A stretch of 64,000 nt of DNA from Escherichia coli (GCF_024502345.1 NZ_JALDNN010000001.1), one strand, 5' to 3'. Positions 30,170 through 55,569 are shown, counted from the stretch's first letter. Translations and numbers: made by a program. The notes: generated from the sequence alone by a model not told the origin.

Positions 30170-30604
30170 CAGTGTTTCTCCTTTCGCCCGCCAGAGTAAA
30201 AAGCAACCGTTTACGTTAATGAAACTGTCTAAACACATGCTCGTGGAGTGCCAGTTTTTGCGAGGAAGGGGAGTTAGAGACAGGAATTGCGGAGGCAATC
30301 ACATAATCGTGGTTAAACCACGAAAATGAGAAGAGAACCTGACAATGAAATTATCTGTAATTTTCTCATATTGATATTTCATTAATCATTCTGGCATGTC
30401 GCACTCTCGCATTTAATCGTTTTTATCTGGATAGCGCTCTTTTGGTCGGCAATGTTGAAATAATGAAAGCGGCATAGATTGAGGGGCAATAATTTGAACT
30501 CAGTCGCAAAATTATAATTAAAACGGTCATGCTACCTAATATATGCCCGTTTATTGCATCGCGAAATTTGAGAAGACATAACTCATTAAATGAAAGGGAT
30601 GCAA

Positions 30605-33012: not shown

Positions 33013-33018
33013 AAGAAA

Positions 33019-33042
33019 TCTCCGCGCTGAAAGGCGCGGAGA
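33019..33042. terminator. bidirectional hairpin terminator between ygfS and ghxQ
   Basis: TCTCCGCGCTGAAAGGCGCGGAGA perfect palindrome between convergent genes. Confidence 0.65.
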
Positions 33043-33047
33043 ATCTA

Positions 33048-34415: not shown

Positions 34416-34450
34416 AATGATGTCCTCACGAGGATGTAAAAGTTTTATTA

Positions 34451-35770: not shown

Positions 35771-35784
35771 TGACTCCTTTACTG

Positions 35785-37185
35785 TTAATCCATCTCTTCC
35801 GCTGAGGTAATACCAGGCAGAACGTTTTCCTGTCGGTAGCCACCAGGGAGGATAATATTTAATAAAATCGCAGTTAACCCGCCAGCACAAATAGGGTTTT
35901 CAACTAATACATAAATAGAGGCTGGCAATATTTTAAAAATTTCGGGATCGTAGGAGACGCCAAGCCCTAAACCTAAAGAAGTGGCGACAATAAGTGTTTC
36001 ACGCCGCTTTAATCCGTTGGTGATGATGATGCGAATCCCAGCGATGGCAATCATGGAAAACATCAACGTCATTGCGCCTCCCAGAACTGCCGAGGGAATG
36101 GTCGTGAAGAAGCCGCCAATCATCGGAAATAAGCCGAGGATAACCAGCATTACCGCGATGGTTCGCCCGACATAACGTGAAGCGACGCCAGTCATCTGAA
36201 TAACCCCATTATTTTGCGCAAACGTGGTTAATGGTAATGAACCGACAGCGGAGGCGATAACAGAAACCAGACCATCTGCCAGCACGCCGCCTTTCAGTCG
36301 GGACTGATACTCTTCCCCCTGAATGGGGCGGCGGGAAACCATTGCCGTGGCGGTGATATCGCCGACTGCTTCCAGCACGCTAAGCAGATAAATCGTGCCA
36401 ACCACCAGGAACTGATGGAAGCTAAAACTAAAGCCGTATTTGAACGGATGCGGGATGGTGATTAACGGCAAATTGCGCATACTGCTGAAATCCACCATGC
36501 CCAGGCATAACGATGCGATATAGCCGACACATAGCCCAATGGCGATCCCTCCCATGCGTAGCAACGGACTGCGACAGCAGTTAAAGCCGATCACCACAAT
36601 TAAAACCAATAAACCAACGCCGAGATGTTCGTAATTGCCGAACGTACCGCTGCTTTTGGCTGCAAATCCTCCACCAAAATCGATAATGCCGACTTTAATC
36701 AGGCTTAAGCCGATCATCAGTACCACAATACCGCTGACGGTAGGCGTAATAACCCGACGTAAATAGGGCAAGATAAATGAAGATCCGACAACCAGAAATG
36801 CGCCAACGAAGGAGACGCCGAGAAGCGACGACATGATTAACTCTTCGTGAAAACCGTCGCTTTTCATGCTGCTGCCCAGCGCAATCATGACCGTAACAAA
36901 TGAAAAATTGACTGACTGAATTGAGAGTAGGCCAGAACCGACGATGCCGTAGCGGTTTACTTGTAACCAGGTACCAATACCAGAGGCGATCATCGCCATA
37001 GAAACAAGATAGGCGGTTGTTTCAGCGGAAAGCTGTAAGGCCGCACCCACGATTAACACGGGGGTTACCATCGGAACGAAAATTGCCAACAGATGGGTAA
37101 TGGCACCAACGAGAGCCTGATGAAAGGGAGGGCGATCCTCCAGTTCAAATATAAGGTCAGAACCTGCATGGTTTATATCAGACAT
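35785..37185 (-). CDS. xanQ: xanthine permease (NCS2 family)
   Basis: ORF 35785..37242; start at MSDINHAGSDLIFELEDRPPFHQA; 466 aa. Confidence 0.9.
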   Translation of the reverse strand: MSDINHAGSDLIFELEDRPPFHQALVGAITHLLAIFVPMVTPVLIVGAALQLSAETTAYLVSMAMIASGIGTWLQVNRYGIVGSGLLSIQSVNFSFVTVMIALGSSMKSDGFHEELIMSSLLGVSFVGAFLVVGSSFILPYLRRVITPTVSGIVVLMIGLSLIKVGIIDFGGGFAAKSSGTFGNYEHLGVGLLVLIVVIGFNCCRSPLLRMGGIAIGLCVGYIASLCLGMVDFSSMRNLPLITIPHPFKYGFSFSFHQFLVVGTIYLLSVLEAVGDITATAMVSRRPIQGEEYQSRLKGGVLADGLVSVIASAVGSLPLTTFAQNNGVIQMTGVASRYVGRTIAVMLVILGLFPMIGGFFTTIPSAVLGGAMTLMFSMIAIAGIRIIITNGLKRRETLIVATSLGLGLGVSYDPEIFKILPASIYVLVENPICAGGLTAILLNIILPGGYRQENVLPGITSAEEMD

Positions 37186-37349
37186 CCCTTCACTCCTTTT
37201 AAAGTAAATTTGATCATCTGAATTAGTAAAATAAATTCCCACGAATTTGGGGCGCAGGACGCCTTGAGAACGGCTTATCTCATTTTCGCAGTCACTATTT
37301 AGTCATCGTCCAAACAGAGAAACAGGCCGCCGAAGCGGCCATTTATTAT

Positions 37350-40220: not shown

Positions 40221-40996
40221 ACGGCTTCCTCCCCAGCCTGTTGGCAGTCGGCATACAGGTCGGCTACCAGAACTCCCGTGATATAGCGTTTATAGGCCAC
40301 GCTGCCCCGCAAATCTTCCTGCGGGAAAATGGCGTTGGCGACAGCCTGTTCAAGTGCATTGCCTTCCAGATTTTGTTTTTCGACATCGTGCAGACGCAGT
40401 GCTTTACTGGCGACGCCATCCAGCGCAATTCGCATACCGTCGTGGTCTGTCATTGCAACGGCTGCCGTCACGACGGTTAAACCTGCCTGAGAACGGCTAA
40501 TTTTGCGGGTCGCACAGGTGCGATACGGATCTTTAATGATAATTTCGGTTAGCAGGCGATCGCATGGGCAGGTCAGGTAGTCCTCGATTGACAGCGTTTC
40601 GCCGTTGCCAAAAACCAGTTCAGCATCCAGTGCCAGCAGGACGGGAAGCAGCACCGACTCTTCCTGCCGGGCGGCGATTTCACCACCAATGGTCGACTGA
40701 TTACGAACATGGCGTGAGTAAACAAAACCGAGGGCTTCACGCAGCGCTGCAGGAATAAATCGCGCATCACGCAGTGGCTGCAAGCGAGACATTGCGCCAA
40801 TCCGCAGTGCACCGTTATCCCAGTCAACCCAGTCCAGTTCCAGATCCTGTAAGGAAATGGCAATCTTTTTATCGGTACGGGTTGGTGTAGCATTGAGTTT
40901 GCTGCCCCCGGCGAACCAGACGGCTTCATCTTGGTAGCGGCGCTTCAGTTCCAGCGCCTGTTCGACAGAGTCGGGCCTGAAAAATTGTTCAATCAT
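40217..40996 (-). CDS. ygfM: FAD-binding subunit of molybdenum hydroxylase (CoxM/XdhB-like)
   Basis: 259 aa; overlaps the xdhD start by 4 nt. Confidence 0.88.
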   Translation of the reverse strand: MIEQFFRPDSVEQALELKRRYQDEAVWFAGGSKLNATPTRTDKKIAISLQDLELDWVDWDNGALRIGAMSRLQPLRDARFIPAALREALGFVYSRHVRNQSTIGGEIAARQEESVLLPVLLALDAELVFGNGETLSIEDYLTCPCDRLLTEIIIKDPYRTCATRKISRSQAGLTVVTAAVAMTDHDGMRIALDGVASKALRLHDVEKQNLEGNALEQAVANAIFPQEDLRGSVAYKRYITGVLVADLYADCQQAGEEAV

Positions 40997-41046
40997 CTTC
41001 TTTCCTTATTTAACCCTCTTCCCTGCGGGAAGAGGGCATCTGTCAT

Positions 41047-42375
41047 TTATGCCAGCGCATCCATCCGACGCCACATACTGGCAGCGGCTTTTCTGGCTTG
41101 TGCATAAATGGAATCGCAATCGAAGTTAAACTGACGGTCTTCATAGACCATCACACCATTGACCATTACGCTGTGAACGCTGCCTGAGCCCATACCGAAA
41201 GCGATATGCCCGGCGATATTGTCTGCCAGCAGCGGCGTCGGCGAGTTGTAATCGCAAATGGTTAAATCAGCTTTGTAACCGGCTTCCAGAAGCCCAAATT
41301 TCGCGCCAAAGTTGCGGCTCATCAGTTCGTTACCGTTAGTCAGGGCTTTGGCAAAACTGTCAGGCCACAGCGGATCACCCGCATCGCGATGTTTAAAGAA
41401 GGCAAATTTCATCTCTTCAAACATGTCCGAACCAATGCCGTCCGTTCCCAACGCCAGATTGCGGATGTCGCTAAGGTGATGGTTGTAGCCGACATGGTTG
41501 TTCATGTTTGAACGGGCGTTATGCACCAGGAACGCATCGCGCTGATTGAGTAGGGCGATGTCATCTTTCGACAAGTACAGCCCATGAGCGACCAGCGTTT
41601 TGCTGTCGATGAGATCGAATTGCGCCAGTCGTGCCAGCAGGTCTTTGCCGTACCAGTGGTGACTGTAGGAAACGTCGTAAAGGTCTTCCGCAGCGTGAAT
41701 ATGCAAACCACGGCCTGTGGCTTTCACGGCTTCACGCAGCATCTCCAGACCGGCATCCGGCACGGTAAACGGCGCGTGAGCACCGATATGTGCTTCCACC
41801 AGATACGGCTCGCTTGTCGCTTTCTTCGCCTCATCAATCAAACGGGCGAAACGGATGTTTTCTTCTACACCTTCCTGCAACTCTTTGATGCCGTTGTTAC
41901 GGTCAGTAGTTTCAAAACAGGTCATTGCGCGCAGGCCAACTTTTAAAAATGCGTCGCGCAATGTGGAGAGCGACCCGCCGATATACGCCGGAGAGGCATG
42001 GTGATCGATAACCGATGTACATCCGCTCTTAATCGCTTCCAGGGAACAAATCAGTCCGCTGTAATAGAGCGACTCTTCATCAAGGGCGCGATCGAGCCGC
42101 CACCAGAGATTTTTCAGCGTTGAGATGAAATCCGGGCAGGGGGCGATGTTTGCCATAATTCCGCGGGAAAGCCCCGAGTAAAAATGGTTGTGCGAGCAGA
42201 CAATTCCCGGCATCACAATCCGACCATGCATCTCTTTGTAGCTGGCATCGGGGTCGCGTTGCGTCAGGGCATCGCCGATAGCGACAATCACGTCATTTTC
42301 GATAGCGATATCAACGCCTTCCTGTACTTTCGCCGGGTGTAACTGCACTGCGGTGACATTCTTCAGAATCAACAT
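41047..42375 (-). CDS. ssnA: amidohydrolase/chlorohydrolase-family protein SsnA
   Basis: ORF 41047..42441; start at MLILKNVTAVQ (complement of 42373-42375); metal-dependent hydrolase HxH motif (SHNHFYS); 442 aa. Confidence 0.9.
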   Translation of the reverse strand: MLILKNVTAVQLHPAKVQEGVDIAIENDVIVAIGDALTQRDPDASYKEMHGRIVMPGIVCSHNHFYSGLSRGIMANIAPCPDFISTLKNLWWRLDRALDEESLYYSGLICSLEAIKSGCTSVIDHHASPAYIGGSLSTLRDAFLKVGLRAMTCFETTDRNNGIKELQEGVEENIRFARLIDEAKKATSEPYLVEAHIGAHAPFTVPDAGLEMLREAVKATGRGLHIHAAEDLYDVSYSHHWYGKDLLARLAQFDLIDSKTLVAHGLYLSKDDIALLNQRDAFLVHNARSNMNNHVGYNHHLSDIRNLALGTDGIGSDMFEEMKFAFFKHRDAGDPLWPDSFAKALTNGNELMSRNFGAKFGLLEAGYKADLTICDYNSPTPLLADNIAGHIAFGMGSGSVHSVMVNGVMVYEDRQFNFDCDSIYAQARKAAASMWRRMDALA

Positions 42376-42377
42376 GA

Positions 42378-45300
42378 TTACACCTCCACGCGGCCCAGCA
42401 GATAATGATGATGCTGGTGGACATGGCTGATGATGCGGCACATATCGTTCAGCTCCGGTGGTACGTTGTTAAACTGACCTTCGCTGTCGATGTTTAACAC
42501 CCAGCTTTGGTTATTCAGACGTACTCGTACCCGGCAATCTTCCACAAGGAAGCCTGGGTTGCTGCTGTTATCAAAGTCTTGCGCCAGGCTGAAGACGGTG
42601 ATTTTGTCTTTGTATGGTTTACCGTTCCACGGACAGAACTGAGCGCAGTTGCCGCATTCGTTACAGTAAGCGTCGAGGTGCAGCGTCTGGAATCTATTCT
42701 GGAAGCCAGGGACTGCAATGGAGACGTTGGCGCGGTTCGGGCAGACATCCACGCACTTGCTGCAAACGTAGTTACATTCAAGGCAGCGAGCAGCTTCCTG
42801 CGCGACAAACGCATCACGATCGTCACTGTTCACCAGCGTGATAGAGATATCGCCTTTACGTTGATAGATTTCCGCCGGATTGACGTTGTTCCAGTATTTA
42901 TTGTTCTGGTGGGAACGGATATTTTCCCGACTAAGGATGGCATCGGTCGCCCGACGCGCGGTTCCGACAGCAGCGACAATGGAGGATGGTCCGCGCTGTA
43001 CGTCGCCGATCATAAAGACGTCAGTCAGACGAGTTTCGCCATTATGGTCGACGTCTGGCCAGCCGTTTTTGTCCAGCGGTACGCCCATCGCATTCAGGGC
43101 TTCAGTATCCTGCTGTTCACCGATGGCGGTGATCAGACTGTCTACATGCAGTGTTACTGTTTCGTTGGTTTCAACCGGACGGCGACGACCTTTCTCATCG
43201 GGTTCGCCAAGCGACATAACGCGCAAGGTTAAGGTGCCATCAGCATCGAAACATTCCGGATTATTCAGGAAACGGAACTCCACGCCGTCGTGCAACGCTT
43301 CTTCATACTCTTCGCGCCATGCGGGCATCTCTTGCAGTGAACGACGGTAAACGATCGTTGCTTTTTCTACGCCTGGAACGCGTAACGCCGCACGAGCGCA
43401 GTCCATTGCGGTGTTACCCGCCCCGACAACGACCACATGTTTGCCCAGCTTGAGCGCTGTACCCTTGTTGTATTCACGCAGGAAGGGGAGTGATTTCCAG
43501 ACATTTTGGTTGTCGCCCGCCAGTTTCACACCGCTATTTTTATCAGTGCCGGTGGCAATCAGAACATAGTGGAAGCCCTGATTTTTTAACTGTTCAACGG
43601 TCAAATCGGGTGAGCAGCCATACTCAAATTTCACGCCGTGAGCGGCAACAAAATCGATATCGTGCTGAATTAACTCTGCAGGAATACGGAACTGAGGGAT
43701 GATATTTTTCACCACGCCGCCCGCATTGGCTTCGCGTTCAAACAGCGTAACCGGATGGCCCGCTCTGGCAAGGAAGTAACCTGCAGCCAGACCCGCCGGA
43801 CCTGCACCAATCACTGCAACCGGATGGCGTGAACCAGAACCGGCTGGTTTGTGCCAGCGTTGCTTATATTCATCCCAACCTTTTTCCAGCGCGACTTTTT
43901 TCAGTTCGCGGATATTCAGTGCACTGTCGTAATCCAGGCGGGTACAGTTGTATTGGCACTGGTGATCGCAAATATGACCGGTAATGGCGGGCAGGGCGTT
44001 GCGTTGGTAGATAAGTTCCAGCGCGTCGGCATAGCGGTGTTCGCCAAGCAGACGGATGTATTCCGGAATATCTTGCTTGATCGCGCAGGCAGTAACACAG
44101 GGGGCAACGTAGCAGTCGGTCAGCGGCAGGTCTTCTGCCACTTCAATACGCTCTTCTGGCTTCCAGTGTTTCTGGGTGTATTCCATGGTTAGCGCGTCTG
44201 CTGCCAGTCTGTTCAGTCGTTCGACGTCAACATGGTCAAGTCCCCAGGCGTCGGAGCCTTCCAGCTCGCGCATGCAGGCACTTAAACGCAGATAGCCACC
44301 AGGTTTCAGCAGGTCGGTTGCCATAGTAATAGGGCGAATACCTGTATCAAAAATATCGCGGATAGTCAGCTGACTGGCACCACCGGAATAAGAAATGGGC
44401 AGTTTGCCGTCAAAGGCGCGAGAGAGAACTGCTGCAACATTGATGGAGAGCGGGAACAGCGCACGGCCTGACATATACATCTCTTCACCAGGCAGTGCGC
44501 CTTTATTGTTGATGGTGCCGAGAGTGTTAGTCAGTTTTACGCCAAAGCCGAGTGATTTTTCTTTTGCCAGTGCCATCAGGCGTTCCAGCATTTCCAGTGC
44601 TTGCGTCAGCTTGAGGTCGTGATCAAATGACTCTTCTTTTAAGCCTATGTAACCGAAACCGCAGACATCGAGGATCTCACGAACACGCGCGTACCCCAGT
44701 AAGGTCGGGTTGAGTTTCACAAAGGTGTTGAGCCCTTTTTCTTCCAGCATGTAGCGGCAAATGGCTTCGATTTCATGCGGAGGACAGCCGTGCATGGTGG
44801 AGAGGGTGACGCCCTGCACCATACTGGTGGGGATGCGAGCGGGTAAGGCTTGCAAGCTTTCGCGTTTTTCCTGCAATCCGTGGCGGGCTAAAAATGCGTC
44901 ATCCTGGAGTAATTTATTCAGCGTATCGCGATATTGCGCGAATTTCGGATGGTCAGATGCGTCCATCATATTGTCGATGAACTGTTGCATCGGCGGTTGC
45001 TTAATACCTTCAAGGTTGTAACCGACGCTCATATTAAAGATGAACGATTTACCGGAATCAGAAGGCTGGAACATCGCTTCGAGAAGGTGCAGGGCAAACC
45101 AGGCTTTGAGGTATTCATCCCAGGCTTTAAGCAGGGTAAATTCGGTAGACCATTCGGTGTTAAAGCACTCGTCTTCGGCATCGATACAGGGCTTTTCCAG
45201 CTCCAGGCGGTCAAGAATTTGGACGGTTTTTAGTTCGATGAAGCGTCCGCCAGTCAGCCAGGAAGTGACAATATTTTGCGCGAGCTGCGTGTGCGGGCCA

Positions 45301-45476
45301 GCGGCAGGGCCGACGGGAGTGGCACAGGTTTCACCGAAGACGCTAACAGTTTTACCTTTTACAGGTGAGTAAAACTGTTGCTCGGGAATACCAAAGATTG
45401 AGCGTTGTTGTTGGTATTCATCAAATATGCGCGTCAAAAGTTCCTCAAACGGAATGGGACGCATAATATCCCCCAT
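42378..45476 (-). CDS. ygfK: large Fe-S/FAD oxidoreductase (putative selenate-reductase-type / glutamate-synthase-like subunit)
   Basis: 1032 aa; [21 protein letters not shown] dinucleotide fold, multiple Cys clusters near the C-terminus. Confidence 0.9.
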   Translation of the reverse strand: MGDIMRPIPFEELLTRIFDEYQQQRSIFGIPEQQFYSPVKGKTVSVFGETCATPVGPAAGPHTQLAQNIVTSWLTGGRFIELKTVQILDRLELEKPCIDAEDECFNTEWSTEFTLLKAWDEYLKAWFALHLLEAMFQPSDSGKSFIFNMSVGYNLEGIKQPPMQQFIDNMMDASDHPKFAQYRDTLNKLLQDDAFLARHGLQEKRESLQALPARIPTSMVQGVTLSTMHGCPPHEIEAICRYMLEEKGLNTFVKLNPTLLGYARVREILDVCGFGYIGLKEESFDHDLKLTQALEMLERLMALAKEKSLGFGVKLTNTLGTINNKGALPGEEMYMSGRALFPLSINVAAVLSRAFDGKLPISYSGGASQLTIRDIFDTGIRPITMATDLLKPGGYLRLSACMRELEGSDAWGLDHVDVERLNRLAADALTMEYTQKHWKPEERIEVAEDLPLTDCYVAPCVTACAIKQDIPEYIRLLGEHRYADALELIYQRNALPAITGHICDHQCQYNCTRLDYDSALNIRELKKVALEKGWDEYKQRWHKPAGSGSRHPVAVIGAGPAGLAAGYFLARAGHPVTLFEREANAGGVVKNIIPQFRIPAELIQHDIDFVAAHGVKFEYGCSPDLTVEQLKNQGFHYVLIATGTDKNSGVKLAGDNQNVWKSLPFLREYNKGTALKLGKHVVVVGAGNTAMDCARAALRVPGVEKATIVYRRSLQEMPAWREEYEEALHDGVEFRFLNNPECFDADGTLTLRVMSLGEPDEKGRRRPVETNETVTLHVDSLITAIGEQQDTEALNAMGVPLDKNGWPDVDHNGETRLTDVFMIGDVQRGPSSIVAAVGTARRATDAILSRENIRSHQNNKYWNNVNPAEIYQRKGDISITLVNSDDRDAFVAQEAARCLECNYVCSKCVDVCPNRANVSIAVPGFQNRFQTLHLDAYCNECGNCAQFCPWNGKPYKDKITVFSLAQDFDNSSNPGFLVEDCRVRVRLNNQSWVLNIDSEGQFNNVPPELNDMCRIISHVHQHHHYLLGRVEV

Positions 45477-45548: not shown

Positions 45549-45573
45549 AGCAACAATCGCACCACTCTTGCCA
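45549..45573 (-). promoter_or_regulatory. candidate sigma-54 (-24/-12) promoter for ygfK
   Basis: Minus-strand read: TGGTGC-gattg-TTGCT (GG-N10-GC spacing), overlapped by TGGCAA-gagtg-GTGCG; about 75-95 nt upstream of the ygfK start. Confidence 0.4.
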
Positions 45574-45797
45574 GGTTTGGCGGGAAATATAAAAAAATGT
45601 GAGGCGGCTCGAAACTTAAGGGCTTTTTGTGAATGAACTCACAGGTGCTAAATGAGAATTAAAATCACTCCTGAAAATTATTATTGCCAGCCCATTTATC
45701 ACTTTTTCTCTTTTCTCAAAATCAGTGATTCCTTATCATTATGATAAAGAGTGCCGGAAGGATTAAATATTTGAACGCAATCGTTTAACTACGTTTT

Positions 45798-47296: not shown

Positions 47297-48922
47297 ATGA
47301 ATATTTTCACAGAGGCTGCAAAACTCGAAGAGCAAAATTGTCCGTTTGCGATGGCGCAAATTGTTGATAGCCGAGGCTCGACTCCCCGCCATTCTGCACA
47401 AATGTTAGTGCGCGCCGATGGTTCTATCGTCGGTACAATTGGTGGCGGAATGGTTGAGCGGAAGGTGATTGAAGAGTCACTTCAGGCATTGCAGGAACGT
47501 AAGCCGCGATTATTCCATGGACGTATGGCTCGTAACGGTGCGGATGCTGTCGGGTCAGATTGTGGAGGTGCAATGTCAGTATTTATCAGCGTCCATGGTA
47601 TGCGTCCACGTCTGGTGTTGATTGGCGCGGGGCATGTCAACCGGGCGATAGCCCAGAGTGCGGCGCTATTAGGATTTGATATTGCCGTTGCCGATATTTA
47701 TCGCGAAAGCCTCAATCCTGAACTATTCCCTCCATCAACCACGCTTCTCCATGCTGAGTCGTTTGGTGCAGCAGTGGAAGCACTGGATATTCGCCCTGAT
47801 AATTTTGTCCTGATTGCCACGAATAATCAGGATCGTGAAGCCCTCGACAAACTCATTGAACAGCCCATTGCATGGTTGGGGTTGCTGGCAAGTCGCCGCA
47901 AGGTTCAGCTTTTCCTGCGTCAATTGCGTGAGAAAGGCGTGGCTGAAGAACATATTGCCCGTTTACATGCGCCCGTTGGTTACAACATAGGTGCGGAAAC
48001 GCCGCAGGAGATCGCCATCAGCGTGCTGGCAGAAATATTACAGGTGAAAAATAACGCGCCGGGTGGGCTGATGATGAAACCTTCTCATCCTTCCGGACAC
48101 CAGCTGGTGGTGATTCGCGGTGCGGGAGATATCGCCAGTGGTGTGGCGCTACGTCTGTATCATGCGGGTTTTAAAGTGATCATGCTGGAAGTGGAAAAAC
48201 CGACAGTGATTCGTTGTACCGTGGCGTTTGCCCAGGCCGTGTTCGATGGCGAAATGACGGTCGAAGGCGTCACTGCTCGCCTGGCAACCAGCTCTGCGGA
48301 AGCGATGAAACTTACCGAACGCGGATTCATCCCTGTGATGGTAGATCCCGCCTGTTCATTGCTTGATGAACTGAAACCGCTTTGCGTGGTGGACGCTATT
48401 CTGGCGAAACAGAATTTGGGAACGCGGGCAGATATGGCACCAGTAACAATCGCGCTTGGGCCGGGCTTTACTGCAGGGAAGGATTGTCATGCGGTAATTG
48501 AAACAAATCGCGGGCACTGGCTCGGTCAGGTGATTTACTCTGGTTGTGCGCAGGAGAATACCGGTGTTCCTGGCAATATTATGGGGCATACCACCCGACG
48601 GGTGATCCGTGCTCCTGCTGCAGGCATTATGCGATCCAACGTGAAATTAGGCGATCTGGTGAAAGAGGGCGATGTGATTGCCTGGATTGGTGAGCATGAA
48701 ATTAAAGCACCGTTGACGGGGATGGTGCGTGGCTTGTTGAACGACGGCCTGGCAGTGGTCGGTGGTTTTAAAATTGGTGATATCGATCCTCGTGGTGAAA
48801 CGGCTGATTTCACCAGTGTTTCTGATAAAGCCCGGGCGATTGGCGGCGGCGTACTTGAGGCGTTAATGATGTTGATGCATCAGGGCGTGAAAGCGACAAA
48901 AGAAGTGCTGGAAGTGGCTTAA
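47297..48922 (+). CDS. yqeB: XdhC/CoxI-family maturation protein (selenium-dependent molybdenum hydroxylase system protein YqeB)
   Basis: 541 aa with Rossmann-like segments (LIGAGHVNRAIA, VVIRGAGDIASG). Confidence 0.88.
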   Translation: MNIFTEAAKLEEQNCPFAMAQIVDSRGSTPRHSAQMLVRADGSIVGTIGGGMVERKVIEESLQALQERKPRLFHGRMARNGADAVGSDCGGAMSVFISVHGMRPRLVLIGAGHVNRAIAQSAALLGFDIAVADIYRESLNPELFPPSTTLLHAESFGAAVEALDIRPDNFVLIATNNQDREALDKLIEQPIAWLGLLASRRKVQLFLRQLREKGVAEEHIARLHAPVGYNIGAETPQEIAISVLAEILQVKNNAPGGLMMKPSHPSGHQLVVIRGAGDIASGVALRLYHAGFKVIMLEVEKPTVIRCTVAFAQAVFDGEMTVEGVTARLATSSAEAMKLTERGFIPVMVDPACSLLDELKPLCVVDAILAKQNLGTRADMAPVTIALGPGFTAGKDCHAVIETNRGHWLGQVIYSGCAQENTGVPGNIMGHTTRRVIRAPAAGIMRSNVKLGDLVKEGDVIAWIGEHEIKAPLTGMVRGLLNDGLAVVGGFKIGDIDPRGETADFTSVSDKARAIGGGVLEALMMLMHQGVKATKEVLEVA

Positions 48923-48962
48923 ATGAAAATGGCCGGATGGTATTACCCCCCCGGCCTTAAAA

Positions 48963-49895
48963 TTACTGACAAATCACCGTTCCGGTTTTGCCTTCAATCC
49001 CTTCTTTCGCTTTGCTCAATACGGTAATCAGTGCTTCACGACCTGCGCGAGAGCGAGCAAACGAGGCGGCAGCTTCCACTTTAGGCAGCATAGAACCTTT
49101 CGCAAAATGACCTTCTTCGATAAAGCGTTCAGCATCACTTAATGACAGGCGATCGAGCCACTGTTCATTCTCTTTACCGAAGTTAATGGCCACTTTTTCT
49201 ACCGCAGTCAGAATGATCAGCATATCGGCATCAATCATTTCTGCTAAACGGGCGCTGGCCCAGTCTTTATCGATAACCGCGCTGGCACCACGCAGATGGT
49301 TACCTTCACGAATAACAGGAATACCACCACCGCCAACGGTGATCACCACCTGGCCTGCATCTACCAGAGCTTTAACCGTTTCTTTTTCAATAATATCAAC
49401 CGGTTTTGGCGAGGCAACAACACGGCGATAGCCGCGACCAGCATCTTCTTTCAGAGTGTAACCCTGTTTTGTCAGTTGCTCTGCTTCTTGCTCGGTAAAG
49501 AACGAACCGATCGGCTTGGTCGGGTTGAGGAATGCCGGATCGTTAGCGTCGACTTCGACCTGAGTAACCAGCGTTGCTACCGGTTTATTAATGCCCCGAG
49601 AAAGCAGTTCTTCTCTTAAGGCGTTTTGTAGATCGTAACCAATATAACCCTGGCTTAAGGCAACGCAGACAGACATCGGCAGCATTGGCGAGTGCGCTTC
49701 AGTTTTTGCAGCAGCTTCAAAGGCCTGGTTAATCATGCCCACCTGCGGCCCGTTACCATGAGTGACGATAACTTCATGTCCTTGGGCAATTAAATCAACA
49801 ATTGCCTGAGAAGTAATTTTTACCGCTTTCATTTGTCCGGCCAGGTCATCGCCCAGCGCATTCCCGCCCAGGGCGAGAACAATTTTCTTACTCAT
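48963..49895 (-). CDS. yqeA: carbamate kinase-like protein
   Basis: 310 aa; amino-acid kinase family (MSKKIVLALGGNAL...). Confidence 0.9.
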   Translation of the reverse strand: MSKKIVLALGGNALGDDLAGQMKAVKITSQAIVDLIAQGHEVIVTHGNGPQVGMINQAFEAAAKTEAHSPMLPMSVCVALSQGYIGYDLQNALREELLSRGINKPVATLVTQVEVDANDPAFLNPTKPIGSFFTEQEAEQLTKQGYTLKEDAGRGYRRVVASPKPVDIIEKETVKALVDAGQVVITVGGGGIPVIREGNHLRGASAVIDKDWASARLAEMIDADMLIILTAVEKVAINFGKENEQWLDRLSLSDAERFIEEGHFAKGSMLPKVEAAASFARSRAGREALITVLSKAKEGIEGKTGTVICQ

Positions 49896-49942
49896 TTTTC
49901 CTCACTCATCATTCTTGATTGTGTATAGATCCCTGACAGTGG

Positions 49943-51328
49943 TTAGAGCACGGGAGGGACAAACGGTTTGCGTCGCAGGAAACGACCTCGCCCGGCTTTG
50001 CCTGTAAAGGTGCCGTCACAGAAAATCGTTTCACCACGGGATAAGGTTCTGACAATCGCGCCCTGACAGGTAAAACCCTCCCATGGCGAGTAGTCGGCGT
50101 TGTCGTGGAGATGGCGATGCTGAATTTGTTGGCTCTGACGTGGGTCGATAATCACCACGTCGCCATCGGAACCGGGCGCTAATAATCCTTTTTGCGGCCA
50201 CAGGCCAAACAGCCTGGCGGGCATTGCGCTGGTTAATTCAACAAAGCGTTCCGGTGTTATACGTCCCGTCATCACGCCACTGGAAAACAGTAACTGCATG
50301 CGGTTTTCCACACCGGGTAAGCCATTTGGGCAGCGACTGAAATCGCCTTTAGAAATTTGCAGGCGTTGAGCCATCGAGAAGGTGCAGTGATCGGTCGCCA
50401 CCACGTCAATCGCACCATCGCTGATGCCACACCACAGTTTGTCCTGCTCGCGTACGTTACGCAGCGGTGGGCTAAGAATGAACTTCATGCCATCTTCTGT
50501 ATCGTAACTGCGTTCGTCCAACAGGAGATATTGTGGGCAGGTTTCAACCCAGACTGGCTGGTGATTCGCACGGGCAAGACGCAGATAATCCAGACCTAAG
50601 CCGTTAGACAGGTGCACGATATAGAGCGGGGCGTTACCGGCAATTTGTGCCAGGTTAATCATGCGGGCGATGGCTTCCGCTTCGCATTCCAGAGGGCGAC
50701 TCAAGGCATGATAGCGCGGCGCGGTTAACCCTGCGGCGATAAATTCCGCCCGCTTGCTGGCGATAGCCGCATCATTTTCCGGGTGCACGGTGGTCAGCGC
50801 GCCGGATTCATGCAGACGGCGTAATGCCTGCAAAACCTCGTCATCGTTGAGTTTGTATTGATAGGTTAAATAGAGTTTAAAACTGCTCAGTCCTTCCTCG
50901 ACCATCATCGGGATTTCGTCGAGGATTGCGTGATTAATGTGCTGGATCACACCGTGAAAGCTGTAATCGATGACCGCTTTATGGGCGGCATAACCACGAT
51001 AAACCTCCAGTTGATGGCGTAACCGACAGCCGTTTGGGCCAAATCCCATATGGTCAATAATGGTTGTTGTACCGCCACACGCAGCTGCGCGGGTACCGGT
51101 AAAAAAATCATCACAACTGCGCGCGATGCCGACATCAATATTGAAATGCGTATGGACATCCACGCCGCCAGGGAAAACGTAACAGCCAGTGGCATCAATT
51201 TCTTCATACGGGAGCTGCGGCGAAATATTGTTGCCCAACTGGCGAACAATCCCGCTTTCAATCAGCAAATCCTGTTTGGCTTGTCCATCTGCGTTAACGA
51301 CAGTGCCGTTTTTGATCAATACGCGCAT
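49943..51328 (-). CDS. hyuA: D-phenylhydantoinase (cyclic amidohydrolase/dihydropyrimidinase family)
   Basis: ORF 49943..51340; start at MRVLIKNGTVVNADGQ; metal-binding motif in GGVDVHTHFNID; 461 aa. Confidence 0.9.
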   Translation of the reverse strand: MRVLIKNGTVVNADGQAKQDLLIESGIVRQLGNNISPQLPYEEIDATGCYVFPGGVDVHTHFNIDVGIARSCDDFFTGTRAAACGGTTTIIDHMGFGPNGCRLRHQLEVYRGYAAHKAVIDYSFHGVIQHINHAILDEIPMMVEEGLSSFKLYLTYQYKLNDDEVLQALRRLHESGALTTVHPENDAAIASKRAEFIAAGLTAPRYHALSRPLECEAEAIARMINLAQIAGNAPLYIVHLSNGLGLDYLRLARANHQPVWVETCPQYLLLDERSYDTEDGMKFILSPPLRNVREQDKLWCGISDGAIDVVATDHCTFSMAQRLQISKGDFSRCPNGLPGVENRMQLLFSSGVMTGRITPERFVELTSAMPARLFGLWPQKGLLAPGSDGDVVIIDPRQSQQIQHRHLHDNADYSPWEGFTCQGAIVRTLSRGETIFCDGTFTGKAGRGRFLRRKPFVPPVL

Positions 51329-51380
51329 AGCAAACTCCAAAAACCCTCCGGCGAACCGGAGGGGAATAAGTGAAGAGTAA

Positions 51381-52592
51381 TTACTCTGTTGCCAGCCAGC
51401 TTAACGGGATTGCAGCGTACATCGCGGCACAGGTCACCAGGTGAGATTTCCAGGTTTTTTCGTTAGGTGCATGCGCTTCAGGTTCTTTACCCGGGCCAAA
51501 GCCGATCACCGGAATGCCGTGACGGCCCATGATAGATACGCCGTTAGTTGAGAAGGTCCACTTATCAACAACCGGCGCTTTGCCAAACAGCCCTTCGTAG
51601 GCATTCACCAGTGCTTTAACGGTGAAGTGATCTTCTTCCACTTTCCAGGTCGGGAAGTAGCATTCGGTTGGGTAAACCAGGCCAGTCCAGGACGGACGGT
51701 CGTAGTTGTACATAGAAACAACCGCGTTAGCTTTCTGTACTGCAGGCAGGGCGCGGATTTCGTCCAGCGCGCCTTCCCAGGTTTCGCCCCAGGTCAGACG
51801 GCGGTCAATAGAGACGGCGCAGCTATCTGCTACAGCGCAACGGCTTGGGGATGTGAAGAAGATTTCAGAAACGGTGAGGGTGCCTTTGCCGAGGAATTCG
51901 TCATAACCCAGACGTTGGGAGAGTTCTTGTAATTCGCCAAGAATCGGACCCATTTTGAAAATGGCGTTGTCACCGCGTTCTGGCGCAGAACCGTGGCAGC
52001 TAACACCCTGAACATCAATACGAATTTCCATACGACCGCGCTGACCACGGTATACCTGGCAGTCGGTTGGTTCGGTACTGACCACAAATTCCGGGCGAAT
52101 GCCGGATTGTTCAATAATGTACTGCCAGCACAGACCGTCGCAGTCTTCTTCCTGCACAGTACCGGTAACCAGCAGGGTATATTCATCTTCCAGACCGAGG
52201 TCTTTAATGATTTTACCGGCATAAACCATAGATGCCATGCCGCCTTCCTGGTCGGAAGTACCGCGACCACCGATCAGCTCATCAGTTTCCATGCCTTCGT
52301 ACGGATCGAAGTCCCAGTTTTTGATGTTGCCAATGCCGACGGTATCGATATGAGCGTCCATTGCCACCAGACGCGGGCCGTGGCCGATATAACCGAGAAC
52401 GTTACCCATCGGGTCGATTTCAACTTTATCGAAGCCGACTTTTTCCATCTCTTCTTTAATACGATGTACTACGCGTTTCTCGTCGCAGCTTTCACTGGGA
52501 ATAGCAACCATGTCGCGCAGGAAGCGAGTCATATCCGCCTGGTAATCTTTTGCTTTTTCAAGAATCAGTTTGAATGGAATATTCTTAGCCAT
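51381..52592 (-). CDS. ygeY: M20-family peptidase / amidohydrolase (ArgE/DapE-like)
   Basis: 403 aa; M20 metal-binding segments. Confidence 0.88.
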
Positions 52593-52649
52593 TATTTTTC
52601 TCCAGATTTTTTACTCCCCGTTTTGCAGGGAGCAGTTCCAATAGGGTGA

Positions 52650-53846
52650 TTAAGGTGCTACAGCGTGTTTGCCTTCCCAGACAACTTCGCGGTAGTGCTT
52701 CACGTCGGTGTCGCCTTCAGTGCTGATAACCAGCACTACGGCATCTTTGTTCAGCGCCAGTTTTTCCATCAGGCTTTGACGTTGCGGGTGATAATGAACC
52801 GCCGCGAGAACGCCCAAACCGACAGCGCCGGATTCACCGGAGATGATGCGCGGGTCGTTGCCGTACGGATTACCCAGCACGCGCATACCTAATGCGGCAA
52901 CGCTGTCCTGGCAGGAGATGAATTGGGTGGCGCAGTTACGTAGGATTTCCCAGCCCAGCGGGTTAGGTTCGCCACAGGCCAGGCCCGCCATGATGGTGGC
53001 CATATCACCGCCAACGTTGACGATGTCGCCTTTGACGCCGGAGCGATAAATACAGTCAGCTTTGTCAGGTTCAACAATAATGCTATGCAGATTTTGCGGG
53101 CTGTAGACGTCGACCAGATAACCCAGCACACCACCGGCCATTGCACCGACACCAGCTTGCAGCAGAACGTGCGTCGGGGTTACGCCCATTTCACGCATTT
53201 GCTCGACGGCTTCATCTGCCAGGGTTGCGTAGCCTTGCATGATCCAGGATGGGATTTTGGTGTAACCTTCCCATGCCGTGTCCTGTACTACTTCCCAGCC
53301 GTGCTGCTGCGCGTGTTGCATGGTCAGGCGAACGGTATCGTCATAGTTCATATCCGTGACGATGCACTCGGCACCGAGGTTCAGAATGGCGTCAACGCGT
53401 TCCTGAGCAGAACCTTTCGGCATGTAAATCACCGCATTCTGTCCGAGTTGCTGCGCTGCCCACGCCACACCGCGCCCGTGGTTGCCGTCGGTGGTGGTGG
53501 CGAAAGTCATTTTTTCGCCGATGGCATTTTTCAGGTGCTCAAATGACAGCGTTTCGATATCAAGATGATATTTTTCACACAATAATTGAGCGATAGCGTA
53601 CGCACCGCCGAGCATTTTGAAGGCGTTCAGACCGAATCGTTTTGATTCGTCTTTGACAAGAATTTTCTTCACACCAAAAAGGTTTGCGAGATCGTCCAGC
53701 GCACAAAGCGGTGTTGGGCGATAACCAGCTATTTTCTGGTGGAACTGGCGCGCCAGTTTGGCCTGGCTTTGCGAAAAGAGCGGTGATGTTTCGCCGTTGA
53801 AAAATTTGTTATCGGCGATATCAATCTTCAATGAGAAAACGGACAT
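52650..53846 (-). CDS. ygeX: 2,3-diaminopropionate ammonia-lyase (PLP-dependent)
   Basis: 398 aa; fold-type II PLP enzyme; recognised as YgeX/DpaL. Confidence 0.9.
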   Translation of the reverse strand: MSVFSLKIDIADNKFFNGETSPLFSQSQAKLARQFHQKIAGYRPTPLCALDDLANLFGVKKILVKDESKRFGLNAFKMLGGAYAIAQLLCEKYHLDIETLSFEHLKNAIGEKMTFATTTDGNHGRGVAWAAQQLGQNAVIYMPKGSAQERVDAILNLGAECIVTDMNYDDTVRLTMQHAQQHGWEVVQDTAWEGYTKIPSWIMQGYATLADEAVEQMREMGVTPTHVLLQAGVGAMAGGVLGYLVDVYSPQNLHSIIVEPDKADCIYRSGVKGDIVNVGGDMATIMAGLACGEPNPLGWEILRNCATQFISCQDSVAALGMRVLGNPYGNDPRIISGESGAVGLGVLAAVHYHPQRQSLMEKLALNKDAVVLVISTEGDTDVKHYREVVWEGKHAVAP

Positions 53847-53903
53847 ATCCTATCCTTTTGGCCTCTGGAAATAGAGGGCCGACCAGCTGATCGGCCCGAG
53901 GGG

Positions 53904-55094
53904 TTATTTCACGCGTTCTTGCGCTTCTTTCAGCAGTTGCTCGAGCAGTGCACCTGGTTTGGCGTATTTACGGGACAGGATCATCGCGGCGATGATATAA
54001 GGCTTCCAGCTGGCTTCTTTGTAGGTAGCGATACGGTATTTTTCGAATACGCCTTCAGTCACTTCACCTTCTTTGCAGGATACGCCGCTGATATCAGCTG
54101 GCAGGCAGTGCATGTACAGGGCTTCGCCATCACGGGTCAGTTCCATCATCTCTTCAGTACAATGCCAGTCTTTGTGTTGCGCGTTCTGTGCCAGACACTG
54201 TTTTTCCAGTGCTTTTAAGCCTTCGTGGTCGTTCGCACGCAGCAATTCAGTACGCTCTTCCATCACTTTGTAAGGTGCCCATGACTTCGGATAAACGATG
54301 TCTGCATCTTTGAACGCTTCTTCCATGCTGGTGACCTGACGGAAGCTACCGCCAGATGCTTTAGCATTGTTTTTCGCCACTTCAACCACATCCGGGATCA
54401 GGTCGTAGCCTTCCGGATGGGCCAGGGTGACATCCATACCGAAGCGAGTCATCAGACCGATGATGCCTTGTGGTACAGAGAGCGGTTTGCCATAGCTTGG
54501 AGAGTAGGCCCAGGTCATGGCGATTTTTTTACCTTTCAGGTTTTCCAGTGAACCAAAGTGTTCACGTAACCACGCGAGGTCAGCCATTGACTGAGTCGGG
54601 TGGTCAATATCGCATTGCAGGTTCACTAAAGCCGGACGCTGTGGCAGTACACCCTGCTTGTAACCGTCATCAAGTGCAGCGCCAACTTCACGCATATAGG
54701 CGTTGCCTGCGCCCAGATACATATCGTCGCGAATACCAATAGCGTCGGCGCAGAAGGAGATCATATTGGCGGTTTCACGCACGGTTTCGCCGTGAGCGAT
54801 TTGTGATTTGCCTTCGTCGAGATCTTGTTGTGCAAGGCCGAGCAGGTTAAGCGCGGAAGCATAAGAGAAGCGGGTACGGGTGGAGTTGTCGCGGAATACG
54901 GAAATACCTAATCCACTATTAAAGACTTTGGTTGAGATGTTTTCAGCACGCAGTGCTTTTAATGCTGCGGCAACGTCCAGTACTTGTTTCAGTTCATCTG
55001 GCGTCTGTTCCCACGTTAACAAAAAATCTTTCTCGTGAAGGTGAGAGGTCAGCGAATTGATATCCTTAATCAGCTCATTAACAGTTTTCATCAT
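53904..55094 (-). CDS. ygeW: carbamoyltransferase (aspartate/ornithine carbamoyltransferase superfamily)
   Basis: 396 aa; STRTR carbamoyl-phosphate-binding motif (NSTRTRFSY). Confidence 0.9.
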   Translation of the reverse strand: MMKTVNELIKDINSLTSHLHEKDFLLTWEQTPDELKQVLDVAAALKALRAENISTKVFNSGLGISVFRDNSTRTRFSYASALNLLGLAQQDLDEGKSQIAHGETVRETANMISFCADAIGIRDDMYLGAGNAYMREVGAALDDGYKQGVLPQRPALVNLQCDIDHPTQSMADLAWLREHFGSLENLKGKKIAMTWAYSPSYGKPLSVPQGIIGLMTRFGMDVTLAHPEGYDLIPDVVEVAKNNAKASGGSFRQVTSMEEAFKDADIVYPKSWAPYKVMEERTELLRANDHEGLKALEKQCLAQNAQHKDWHCTEEMMELTRDGEALYMHCLPADISGVSCKEGEVTEGVFEKYRIATYKEASWKPYIIAAMILSRKYAKPGALLEQLLKEAQERVK

Positions 55095-55184
55095 AAAGTC
55101 CCGGTAGTGGAATGACAGGCAAAGTGGTTTATTTCACTGTGACTTGCCAAAGTGATTGGTGTTTTCACAGCTATACCTGGGACT

Positions 55185-55200
55185 AACAATAAGTGTGCCA
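55185..55200 (-). promoter_or_regulatory. candidate sigma-54 promoter for the ygeW operon (perfect -24 TGGCAC, weak -12 TTGTT)
   Basis: Minus-strand read: TGGCAC-actta-TTGTT, about 90 nt upstream of ygeW and divergent from the sigma-54 activator gene ygeV. Confidence 0.35.
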
Positions 55201-55569
55201 GAATTATCCGCGCGGCTGCAAAAGACTAATTTGACGGATAATGTGTGGGGTTGATCACAAATTGATGCCAGCTTCTGGTTGTTTGTAAAATACGAAAACG
55301 TTTGGCTTTTTTTATCGCGTTATTTATTTGCTGCTAAGTATCAGAAATAAGATAAAGGGGCAGGCTATCTCTCTTCAGTTTGATAAACTCACCGCCGTAA
55401 TTCTCATATTGATATAGAAATGTGATATCTCTTCCATAATTTCATTAGAAAATGATAAAAATCTTATGTTTTTATCAAAGCCAATTTCGCCTGAGTTAAT
55501 ATCATCATGATCTGTGAACCATCAACGTCTTCAATGATCGACTTTTAAGTAAGTCTGGAAGGTAAAGCT

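Follow-up and report, generated by a model that had tools for sequence, protein, structure and literature searches.

The closest described system is the ygeW-ygeX-ygeY-hyuA-yqeA cluster of Escherichia coli K-12 (b2870-b2874), whose lower-module biochemistry is covered by Liu et al. (Nat Microbiol 2025), Li et al. (Life Metab 2025), Kasahara et al. (2023) and Liu et al. (Cell 2023). Oxidation of xanthine by XdhABC supplies urate, which XdhD-YgfM reduces to 2,8-dioxopurine (Li et al.); the reconstituted upper route leads from urate via 2,8-dioxopurine to ureidomethylhydantoin, and the two 2025 studies (Liu; Li) achieved stepwise in vitro reconstitution from urate all the way to pyruvate. In the lower module, HyuA cleaves the 5-(ureidomethyl)hydantoin ring, yielding 2,3-diureidopropionate (Li et al.; published reconstitutions), and (R)-2,3-diureidopropionate loses one of its ureido groups to phosphorolysis by YgeW, with release of carbamoyl phosphate (Liu et al. 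preprint; Li et al.). YgeW accepts the (R) enantiomer only and is stimulated by YqeA (Liu et al.), which converts carbamoyl phosphate and ADP into ATP, CO2 and NH3; formation of ATP from 2,3-diureidopropanoate by YgeW plus YqeA in the presence of ADP has been demonstrated (Liu et al. preprint). YgeY takes off the remaining ureido group by hydrolysis, producing 2,3-diaminopropionate (Li et al.; published reconstitutions), and YgeX performs the final step to pyruvate and 2 NH3 (published reconstitutions), in good agreement with the build-up of 2,3-diaminopropionate in published ygeX mutants.

Several other systems share parts of this logic. Just as in the arginine deiminase pathway, with its catabolic ornithine carbamoyltransferase (OTC) and carbamate kinase, ureido phosphorolysis yields carbamoyl phosphate and then ATP at the substrate level, a parallel drawn by Liu et al. 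(preprint) themselves. YgeW belongs to the same superfamily as OTC and has the STRTR, HPxQ and HCLP motifs, but it forms a separate, knotted family, and the substrate is a urate-derived C3 diureide rather than citrulline. The route of arginine synthesis via N-acetylcitrulline supplies the nearest characterised relatives of both YgeW (N-acetylornithine carbamoyltransferase, AOTC, 74 bits) and YgeY (ArgE, 61 bits). By analogy, 2,3-diureidopropionate may be regarded as a short-chain counterpart of N-alpha-acyl-citrulline, combining an N-alpha-acyl with a distal ureido group, although the present route is catabolic, its C3 skeleton is D-configured and N-alpha carries carbamoyl instead of acetyl. 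The PydA/PydB/PydC system of reductive pyrimidine breakdown and the industrial D-hydantoinase/N-carbamoylase process likewise employ a cyclic amidohydrolase followed by decarbamoylation; here, in contrast, decarbamoylation is split between an energy-conserving phosphorolytic transferase and an M20 hydrolase of the ArgE/DapE type, and a nitrilase-type or AmaB-type carbamoylase is not used. Indeed, a search of solved structures with YgeY returned no nitrilase-type or AmaB-type relatives at E below 1e-4. Finally, the uricolytic variant of Clostridioides difficile and Fusobacterium follows the same pathway with the same HyuA, YgeY and YgeX steps, but UacY, a D-aminoacylase homologue, replaces YgeW and YqeA and acts hydrolytically, without ATP recovery, whereas the two enzymes that yield ATP are retained in the E. 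coli-type block.

The locus described here lies in a 64,000-nt stretch of E. coli DNA (the window) from a non-K-12 strain with 99.7% identity to O103 and other isolates. The block at 48963-55094 comprises five uninterrupted minus-strand open reading frames (ORFs), as seen in the ORF listing of the window, and is transcribed in the order ygeW, ygeX, ygeY, hyuA, yqeA. An earlier note made from the sequence had described five minus-strand genes with short gaps over exactly this span, located between the xdhABC and xdhD modules, and this description holds: all five genes are intact, the intergenic gaps calculated with RefSeq starts are 57, 57, 52 and 47 nt, and both modules are where the note placed them (Table 1). 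Compared with K-12 b2870-b2874, the locus, genes, gene order, sigma-54 promoter sequence and neighbours are the same, and we see no difference of substance. The block is ordinary, core-like E. coli DNA: at least 80% of it is present at at least 95% identity in 5160 of 5426 complete E. coli genomes, and its GC content is 51.5%, as compared with 51.3% for the window. The remaining urate genes (xdhD-ygfM, ygfK, ssnA and the urate permease gene uacT) all map within positions 28721-45476 of the window and are thus linked to the block.

Table 1. Coordinates of the block, its control elements and its neighbours, counted from the first nucleotide of the window
Feature	Coordinates	Strand	Basis
Upstream pathway half: ygfK, ssnA, ygfM, xdhD	37350-45476	-	Gene coordinates; enzymology from Li et al.
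xdhD	37350-40220	-	In upstream pathway half
ygfK	42378-45476	-	In upstream pathway half
Sigma-54 site of ygfK-xdhD half	45549-45564	-	ChIP-seq site OS31
Perfect CRP consensus before ygfK-xdhD half (putative)	45628-45643		Sequence match
Terminator-like hairpin with T-rich tail, between convergent yqeA and yqeB	48931-48956	-	Folding; end of unit
yqeA/arcC, carbamate kinase	48963-49895	-	TIGR00746, carbamate kinase structures
hyuA, D-hydantoinase/dihydropyrimidinase	49943-51328	-	TIGR02033, D-hydantoinase structures, HxH motif
Hairpin CCCTCCGG-TTCG-CCGGAGGG followed by TTTTT, ygeY/hyuA gap	51344-51363	-	Folding
ygeY, M20 (ArgE/DapE-type) metallo-amidohydrolase	51381-52592	-	TIGR03526
ygeX/dpaL, PLP-dependent 2,3-diaminopropionate ammonia-lyase	52650-53846	-	TIGR03528, PDB 4D9G
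GC-rich hairpin directly after ygeW stop	53876-53897	-	9 bp stem, weak T tail
ygeW, knotted carbamoyltransferase	53904-55091	-	NF005538, PDB 3Q98, motifs; published activity
Sigma-54 (-24/-12) promoter of ygeW, TGGCACACTTATTGTT	55185-55200	-	Motif match; ChIP-seq site OS30
CRP-like site TGTGGGGTTGATCACA, 1 mismatch, upstream of sigma-54 promoter (putative)	55244-55259	.	Sequence match
ygeV (= isrR), sigma-54 enhancer-binding protein, divergent	55570-57348	+	Sigma-54 activator family matches
xdhABC, xanthine to urate	57388-61050	-	Gene coordinates; function from Li et al.
Sigma-54 site of xdhABC	61106-61122	-	ChIP-seq site OS29

All five products score above the curated NCBIfam cut-offs in HMM searches. 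YgeW (ORF 53904-55094, 396 aa; of two ATGs in succession, RefSeq takes the second, at 55091, as the start) scores 825 bits against NF005538 (cut-off 453) and 676 against TIGR03316, but only 133 bits against the OTC model, for which the cut-off is 281. It matches the E. coli YgeW structure PDB 3Q98 over its full length (898 bits) and carries STRTR at residue 70, HPTQ at 164 and HCLP at 328. Near-identity to 3Q98, which is termed knotted in the NCBIfam name and by Li et al. (2011) in their title, implies that the fold would contain a trefoil knot. YgeX (398 aa) scores 650 bits against TIGR03528, the 2,3-diaminopropionate ammonia-lyase family of PLP fold type II (cut-off 532), and 910 bits against the E. 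coli YgeX structure PDB 4D9G over residues 1-398. YgeY (403 aa) scores 722 bits against TIGR03526 (cut-off 322), and its orthologues carry the M20 catalytic and dimerisation domains (PF01546 and PF07687); a PDB search yielded no close solved structure, the closest solved relatives being of the ArgE and DapE type only (best, ArgE, 1e-16). The hyuA ORF extends over 49943-51340 (465 aa from a TTG), while the RefSeq ATG at 51328, with a GGAG Shine-Dalgarno sequence 6 nt upstream, gives 461 aa; HyuA scores 675 bits against TIGR02033 (cut-off 393), matches the D-hydantoinase structure 1YNY with an E value of 1e-109 and has HTH at residues 59-61 as its N-terminal HxH metal motif. YqeA (310 aa) scores 385.6 bits against TIGR00746 (cut-off 358.25) and is similar over its full length to the solved carbamate kinase 1B7B (E value 5.5e-90).

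Functional statements about the block rest on the cited papers; our own analysis concerns which genes are present and whether they are intact, the match of the promoter, and synteny. On this combined basis we are highly confident that the five genes constitute the lower half of the reductive ('2,8-dioxopurine') pathway by which uric acid is degraded anaerobically. The system is already known, its biochemistry having been worked out in 2023-2025, and the enzyme order, ATP formation and genetic requirement have been shown by others. In the strain studied here, XdhD-YgfM would convert urate to 2,8-dioxopurine, and YgfK and SsnA would reduce 2,8-dioxopurine and open its six-membered ring, the product being 5-(ureidomethyl)hydantoin. 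HyuA would then hydrolyse the hydantoin ring to (R)-2,3-diureidopropionate, from which YgeW, using phosphate, would remove a single ureido group (most likely the one at position 3), leaving 3-amino-2-ureidopropionate and carbamoyl phosphate. By moving the phosphate to ADP, YqeA would generate one ATP per urate and pull the unfavourable YgeW reaction forward; YgeY would hydrolyse the remaining N-alpha-ureido group, and YgeX would deaminate the resulting 2,3-diaminopropionate to pyruvate and ammonia.

Could the five enzymes instead have unrelated substrates and be neighbours by chance, with HyuA acting on exogenous phenylhydantoins, YgeX detoxifying diaminopropionate and YgeW plus YqeA acting on oxamate? 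Before 2023 such a reading had some footing, since HyuA was known just as a D-phenylhydantoinase and YgeX just as a diaminopropionate ammonia-lyase, and YgeW had no known substrate. We now regard both the general reading and this particular version of it as having a negligible probability. The same five-gene order recurs in Aeromonas, Morganella, Klebsiella, Arsenophonus, Salmonella and Serratia, that is, in seven genera including E. coli, with different flanking genes, and urate co-induces the genes in three phyla (published). Furthermore, an E. coli MS 200-1 derivative lacking exactly ygeW-arcC no longer grows anaerobically on urate or adenine but still grows on allantoin (Kasahara et al. 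2023), and E. coli and C. sporogenes mutants in single genes build up the predicted intermediates. Taken with the sequential reconstitution, the published genetics effectively refutes unrelated, unlinked substrates. What the earlier note had proposed from the sequence alone (ring opening, decarbamoylation with ATP recovery, a cyclic ureide or purine-derived intermediate as the substrate, and perhaps a single route formed by the block and the flanking xdh modules) is thus borne out by published experiments: HyuA acts on a urate-derived hydantoin, YgeW is a phosphorolytic decarbamoylase with YqeA making ATP (Liu et al. preprint), the reconstituted intermediates derive from urate, and XdhABC makes the urate that XdhD-YgfM reduces. 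Among its candidate substrates, diaminopropionate was right, while oxamate/oxalurate and dihydropyrimidines are not the true ones. Its remark that the intermediates were not fully assigned is outdated, as they were assigned in 2025, save for the position of the ureido group in one monoureide and for two early intermediates whose assignment is provisional.

That monoureide depends on which ureido group YgeW removes. We consider it probable that YgeW removes the 3-ureido and YgeY the N-alpha-ureido group. Liu et al. fed [1,3-15N2]urate to a ygeY mutant of C. sporogenes and recovered only M+1 monoureide, which implies loss of N3 and C2, i.e. of the 3-ureido group. The homology ranking points the same way: YgeW is far nearer to the distal-amine carbamoyltransferases (AOTC, 74 bits; OTC, 72; putrescine carbamoyltransferase, PTC, 62) than to aspartate carbamoyltransferase, ATC (just 33), its HCLP motif also counts for removal of the 3-ureido group, and the only detectable solved relatives of YgeY are N-alpha-deacylases such as ArgE (61 bits), DapE and LysK. 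Together, the 15N tracing and this ranking favour the 3-ureido group. Li et al. propose the reverse, with YgeW phosphorolysing the 2-ureido (N-alpha) group to give albizziin (2-amino-3-ureidopropionate) and YgeY hydrolysing the 3-ureido group. In their hands the product of HyuA plus YgeW (or plus C. difficile UacY) co-elutes with commercial albizziin, albizziin is converted to pyruvate by YgeY and YgeX, and an over-expressing strain accumulates albizziin. However, since Liu et al. saw the isomers as two closely spaced peaks, co-elution alone is weak evidence, and we judge the reversed order unlikely, albeit with the proviso that the tracing was performed in C. sporogenes and E. coli may differ. 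There may be an E. coli-specific difference, or both enzymes may be promiscuous; a 2025 commentary lists the cleavage order among the unsettled points.

Expression of the block starts from a sigma-54 promoter located some 80 nt before ygeW, with a predicted leader of about 80 nt. The motif, read 55200-55185, is identical in sequence to ChIP-seq site OS30 (Bonocora 2015), an RpoN gSELEX peak falls in the ygeV/ygeW spacer, and the element is shared by the same six other genera, where it is kept 81-123 nt upstream of ygeW. The window also contains sister sigma-54 sites for each of ygfK, xdhA and ygfT. The putative CRP-like site (Table 1) agrees with the report by Li et al. of a native Crp-binding site in the ygeV/ygeW spacer and of glucose repression of the pathway. 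A gene for an enhancer-binding protein adjoins ygeW in all seven genera, and the YgeV iModulon groups ygeW, ygeX, ygeY and hyuA with xdh and ygf genes; YgeV is presumed to be the direct activator of the cluster. Transcription would start at the sigma-54 promoter, with YgeV, encoded divergently, as the presumed activator and with an input from CRP, and would stop at the hairpin after yqeA (-17.9 kcal/mol, z -2.49).

Whether the block forms one operon, as the earlier note had it, is less clear-cut. The promoter before ygeW and the terminator-like hairpin after yqeA agree with this; on the other side, there are internal hairpins. We found no E. coli transcript map spanning all five genes in the literature, where the units are variously named the 'ygeWXY operon', a single-gene 'ygeW' and the 'ygeW-arcC operon'. 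The alternative is that terminators split the block into two or three units (ygeW, ygeX-ygeY and hyuA-yqeA) that are co-regulated at the regulon level only. It draws on the stable hairpins directly after ygeW (centroid -18.3 kcal/mol, z -1.25) and directly before hyuA (-18.4 kcal/mol, z -2.87), the second with a T5 run, on the presence of hairpins at both positions in all seven genera examined, on databases and papers that cite 'ygeW' or 'ygeWXY' as units, and on the absence of yqeA from the 13-gene YgeV iModulon list. Yet the second hairpin is only about 15 nt from the hyuA start codon and this spacer holds the Shine-Dalgarno sequence, meaning that any hyuA transcript must begin upstream and cross the hairpin. 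Promoter-like sigma-70 sites are no commoner in the block than in shuffled sequences (5 versus 7.2 expected), no internal sigma-54 ChIP site has been reported for ygeX, ygeY, hyuA or yqeA, and among the seven genera the T-run after the pre-hyuA hairpin is limited to E. coli and Morganella. Moreover, hyuA co-varies with ygeWXY in the iModulon, and in C. sporogenes insertions that disrupt ygeW and ygeX have polar effects (published). Separate units are improbable in our estimation, and we infer a single read-through transcript in which the internal hairpins tune expression rather than stop transcription.

The two internal hairpins are conserved in position and divergent in sequence: the sequence of the pre-hyuA hairpin differs among the genera, and in E. 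coli, Klebsiella, Salmonella and Arsenophonus the hyuA Shine-Dalgarno sequence is paired in the outer helix of this hairpin. They appear not to have been described before, and we put forward only tentatively, as the less probable case, that they are functional sub-operonic control elements. If so, they could cause ygeW, ygeXY and hyuA-yqeA to be expressed to different extents, perhaps by partial termination or by stabilisation of mRNA segments; alternatively, translation of hyuA could be coupled to termination of ygeY.

The five minus-strand genes that the earlier note had placed at 48963-55094 are indeed there: in the ORF listing this span is filled by five minus-strand ORFs, which RefSeq, in a strain with 99.7% identity, annotates as arcC/yqeA, hyuA, ygeY, dpaL/ygeX and ygeW. 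All five products exceeded the curated NCBIfam cut-offs of their families. For hyuA the start codon is most likely the ATG at 51328, which has a GGAG 6 nt upstream, and not the TTG at 51340; the two neighbouring ATGs of ygeW are 55094 and 55091. Measured from these start codons, the spacers between the genes are 57, 57, 52 and 47 nt long, and every reading frame is intact. Structures of the E. coli proteins YgeW (3Q98) and YgeX (4D9G) have been solved, for HyuA and YqeA there are homologous structures only, and for YgeY only distant ArgE/DapE relatives. The window is from the chromosome of E. coli. The queried span was matched in 5178 of the 5426 complete genomes of this species, 5160 of them with at least 80% of the span at 95% identity or higher; the block is missing from the other 248 (~4.6%).

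Features of the five-gene block and its surroundings (window coordinates; genes of the block in order of transcription)
Feature	Coordinates	NCBIfam model	Score (bits)	Description
uacT	28721-30169 (approximate)			
ygfT-ygfS				listed between uacT and ghxQ
ygfT sigma-54 site	30542-30558			
ghxQ, guaD, xanQ				listed between ygfT-ygfS and the xdhD module
xdhD-ygfM-ssnA-ygfK	37350-45476			
ygfK sigma-54 site	45564-45549			
CRP site	45628-45643			perfect consensus, TGTGAATGAACTCACA; upstream of the ygfK sigma-54 promoter
mocA, yqeC, yqeB				molybdenum and selenium cofactor maturation; listed between ygfK and the five-gene block
ygeW	53904-55091	NF005538	825	knotted carbamoyltransferase
ygeX (dpaL)		TIGR03528	650	diaminopropionate ammonia-lyase
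ygeY		TIGR03526	722	M20 hydrolase
hyuA		TIGR02033	675	D-hydantoinase/dihydropyrimidinase
yqeA (arcC)	48963-49895	TIGR00746	386	carbamate kinase
Second hairpin	51363-51344			stable; just before hyuA; CCCTCCGG-TTCG-CCGGAGGG, then TTTTT
First hairpin	53897-53876			stable; directly 3' of ygeW
ygeW sigma-54 element	55200-55185			TGGCACACTTATTGTT
CRP-like site	55244-55259			one mismatch; upstream of the ygeW sigma-54 promoter
ygeV	55570-57348			divergent sigma-54 activator gene
xdhCBA	57388-61050			
xdhA sigma-54 site	61122-61106			

This locus is the very one that has already been characterised, neither a new member nor a variant, and its function is known in detail. The route was reconstituted in 2025 by two groups, Liu et al. 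(Nat Microbiol 10:2291; preprint) and Li et al. (Life Metab); the biochemistry and regiochemistry of Liu et al. are cited here from the preprint and its supplement. According to both groups, XdhD-YgfM reduces urate to 2,8-dioxopurine, YgfK and SsnA yield 5-(ureidomethyl)hydantoin, HyuA opens the ring of the latter to give 2,3-diureidopropionate, YgeW phosphorolyses one ureido group, YqeA makes ATP from carbamoyl phosphate and ADP, YgeY takes off the other ureido group to leave 2,3-diaminopropionate, and YgeX produces pyruvate and ammonia. That YgeW and YqeA together make ATP from 2,3-diureidopropanoate was measured directly (Liu et al. preprint). Genetic evidence is also published: acetate production from urate was lost in E. 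coli and C. sporogenes mutants (Liu et al.), and Kasahara et al. (preprint) deleted exactly ygeW-dpaL-ygeY-hydA-arcC in E. coli MS 200-1, obtaining a mutant that lost anaerobic growth on urate and on adenine but kept it on allantoin.

Given the published reconstitutions and the measured ATP, the earlier reading of the block, in which a purine-derived cyclic ureide is ring-opened and decarbamoylated with recovery of ATP, was correct in all main respects. Its suggestion that xdhABC, the five-gene block and the xdhD module form one pathway holds as well, since XdhABC supplies urate from xanthine (Li et al.) and XdhD-YgfM reduces it; its remark that the intermediates are not fully assigned has been overtaken by the 2025 reconstitutions.

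The block is embedded in a purine/urate region of ~32 kb that lies entirely inside the window. Beside a sigma-54 activator gene, the order OTCace, PALP, M20, amidohydrolase, AA_kinase is identical in the neighbourhoods of all six other genera compared (Aeromonas, Morganella, Klebsiella, Arsenophonus, Salmonella and Serratia), with variable outer flanks. YgeW homologues are 85-92% identical across Enterobacterales and Aeromonas (E. coli, Morganella, Arsenophonus, Serratia, Aeromonas), a level of conservation that points to very strong constraint or else to a recent horizontal spread of the block.

Several local departures were seen. In E. coli NCTC9064 (L003 6357-9051, corresponding to about 30300-59000 of the window) an IS1A is joined to a truncated xdhA, and the ygfT-to-xdhB stretch, i.e. 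the entire uricolytic cluster with the five genes, is absent. In the insect symbiont Arsenophonus nasoniae (L007 345-2660) xdhA is split into three ORFs of 532, 137 and 64 aa, an apparent pseudogene, yet the ygeW-yqeA block and its activator are intact. The yqeB homologue of Salmonella enterica (L008 12675-13541) has only 288 aa where that of E. coli has 541, and between this homologue and ygfK a yqeC was not called; in Salmonella the cluster occurs in some lineages only and lies near a Y1 transposase gene. At the far end of the window, tRNA-Gly (62299-62369) precedes a ygeQ remnant and an IS3-family element (62299-64000), whereas in E. coli O103 ML775 a phage-like island that carries an integrase (L001 33337-45695) comes after this tRNA-Gly; the window's arrangement over at least 80% of 61000-64000 is common to only 161 genomes. 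A tandem pair of Sib antitoxin RNAs, with ibs toxin ORFs on the strand opposite them, and ssrS, the gene for 6S RNA (4303-4453, 4695-4845 and 5494-5677), are ordinary known features with no relation to the block.

The sigma-54-type element upstream of ygeW matches at every position the ChIP-seq site OS30, which Bonocora et al. (2015) assigned to ygeW; its sister sites at ygfK, xdhA and ygfT lie in the window as well. The ygeV/ygeW spacer was recovered by RpoN gSELEX too. Across the whole window a generic sigma-54 pattern gave 47 matches against 44.6 expected, i.e. no enrichment, and we retained only sites coinciding with published ChIP-seq peaks. In all six other genera a sigma-54 element lies 81-123 nt upstream of ygeW. 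The CRP-like sites upstream of the ygeW and ygfK promoters are consistent with the Crp site and glucose repression described by Li et al., and these predicted sites may be the cause of that repression; the coupling of CRP sites with sigma-54 promoters is unusual. Searches of the ygeV-ygeW spacer for repeats and inverted repeats that could serve as a YgeV upstream activating sequence gave weak, unconvincing pairs only. In EHEC, where ygeV has been given the new name isrR, it ranks among the genes that indole induces most strongly and regulates LEE virulence genes (PMC9426417).

The weakest part of the earlier proposal is the claim that the five genes form an operon. In its favour are the sigma-54 promoter and a hairpin with a T-rich tail between the convergent yqeA and yqeB, which marks the end of the unit. 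A sigma-70 promoter scan of the block returned 5 sites against 7.2 expected and so makes no case for an internal promoter. Against it stand the two stable internal hairpins. The same two gaps hold hairpins of unrelated sequence in all seven genera, with z-scores against dinucleotide shuffles of -1.1 to -3.7 for the ygeW-ygeX gap and -1.7 to -3.6 for the ygeY-hyuA gap, and the hyuA-yqeA gap (2-95 nt) is unstructured save in Aeromonas. Among these genera, only E. coli and Morganella have a T-run after the second hairpin. In E. coli merely ~15 nt, ribosome-binding site included, separate this hairpin from the hyuA start codon, which means that every hyuA message must cross it; in four genera the hyuA Shine-Dalgarno sequence is drawn into its outer helix, in E. 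coli through pairing of the GGAG with an ACUCU segment. Rfam searches of the whole window at the gathering threshold and of 48800-55650 at E up to 1 gave no hit to a known RNA element, riboswitch or leader within the block. The literature, in which we found no transcript map of the block, refers variously to 'ygeW', 'ygeWXY' and 'ygeW-arcC', and the 13-gene YgeV iModulon includes ygeW, ygeX, ygeY and hyuA but not yqeA. The gene yqeA follows hyuA at a distance of only 47 nt, and its absence from the iModulon may be an artefact of thresholding or may point to differential expression. We infer a single sigma-54-initiated transcript; its internal hairpins would not delimit independent units but would adjust the stability of segments, partial termination or the coupling of translation.

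The two reconstitutions disagree on which ureido group YgeW cleaves. According to Liu et al., YgeW takes the 3-ureido group to give (R)-3-amino-2-ureidopropanoate and YgeY takes the 2-ureido group, whereas according to Li et al. YgeW takes the 2-ureido group to give albizziin and YgeY the 3-ureido group. Percudani's commentary lists the order as unresolved, and our literature search found no later paper deciding it. When a C. sporogenes ygeY mutant was given [1,3-15N2]urate, only the M+1 monoureide accumulated (Liu et al. supplement), which means that the N3-C2 carbamoyl unit, i.e. the 3-ureido group, had been lost. The two synthetic monoureide isomers form a close elution doublet (same supplement), which weakens arguments from co-elution. 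By homology (N-acetylornithine carbamoyltransferase, AOTC, 74 bits; ornithine carbamoyltransferase, OTC, 72; putrescine carbamoyltransferase, PTC, 62; aspartate carbamoyltransferase, ATC, 33), the nearest relatives of YgeW are carbamoyltransferases whose target is the distal amine of a diamine substrate, either N-alpha-substituted or simple, the alpha-amine being the target of ATC. YgeW also carries the motif HCLP, the OTC-type variant of what is HPLP in aspartate carbamoyltransferases. The sole detectable solved relatives of YgeY are the N-alpha-deacylases ArgE, DapE, LysK and CPG2. Both sets of relatives point in the same direction as the isotope test: 2,3-diureidopropionate can be seen as a C3 counterpart of N-acyl-citrulline, and YgeW with YgeY as akin to AOTC with ArgE working in reverse. 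While this argument from protein relatedness is suggestive only, we consider the order of Liu et al., for which the isotope test comes from C. sporogenes, to be probably the right one.

Gut bacteria dispose of about one-third of human urate by the uricolytic pathway, from which they gain ATP as well as fitness in the gut, and engineered E. coli Nissle over-expressing the cluster lowers serum urate in mice. The biological and medical importance of the pathway is thus already published and the present finding adds no new knowledge to it; what is unexplored, the conserved intercistronic hairpins and the disputed order of ureido cleavage, is minor. The block is a good example of a correct inference made from sequence alone, and both the order of ureido cleavage and the transcript architecture of the block are relevant to those who engineer flux through this pathway.
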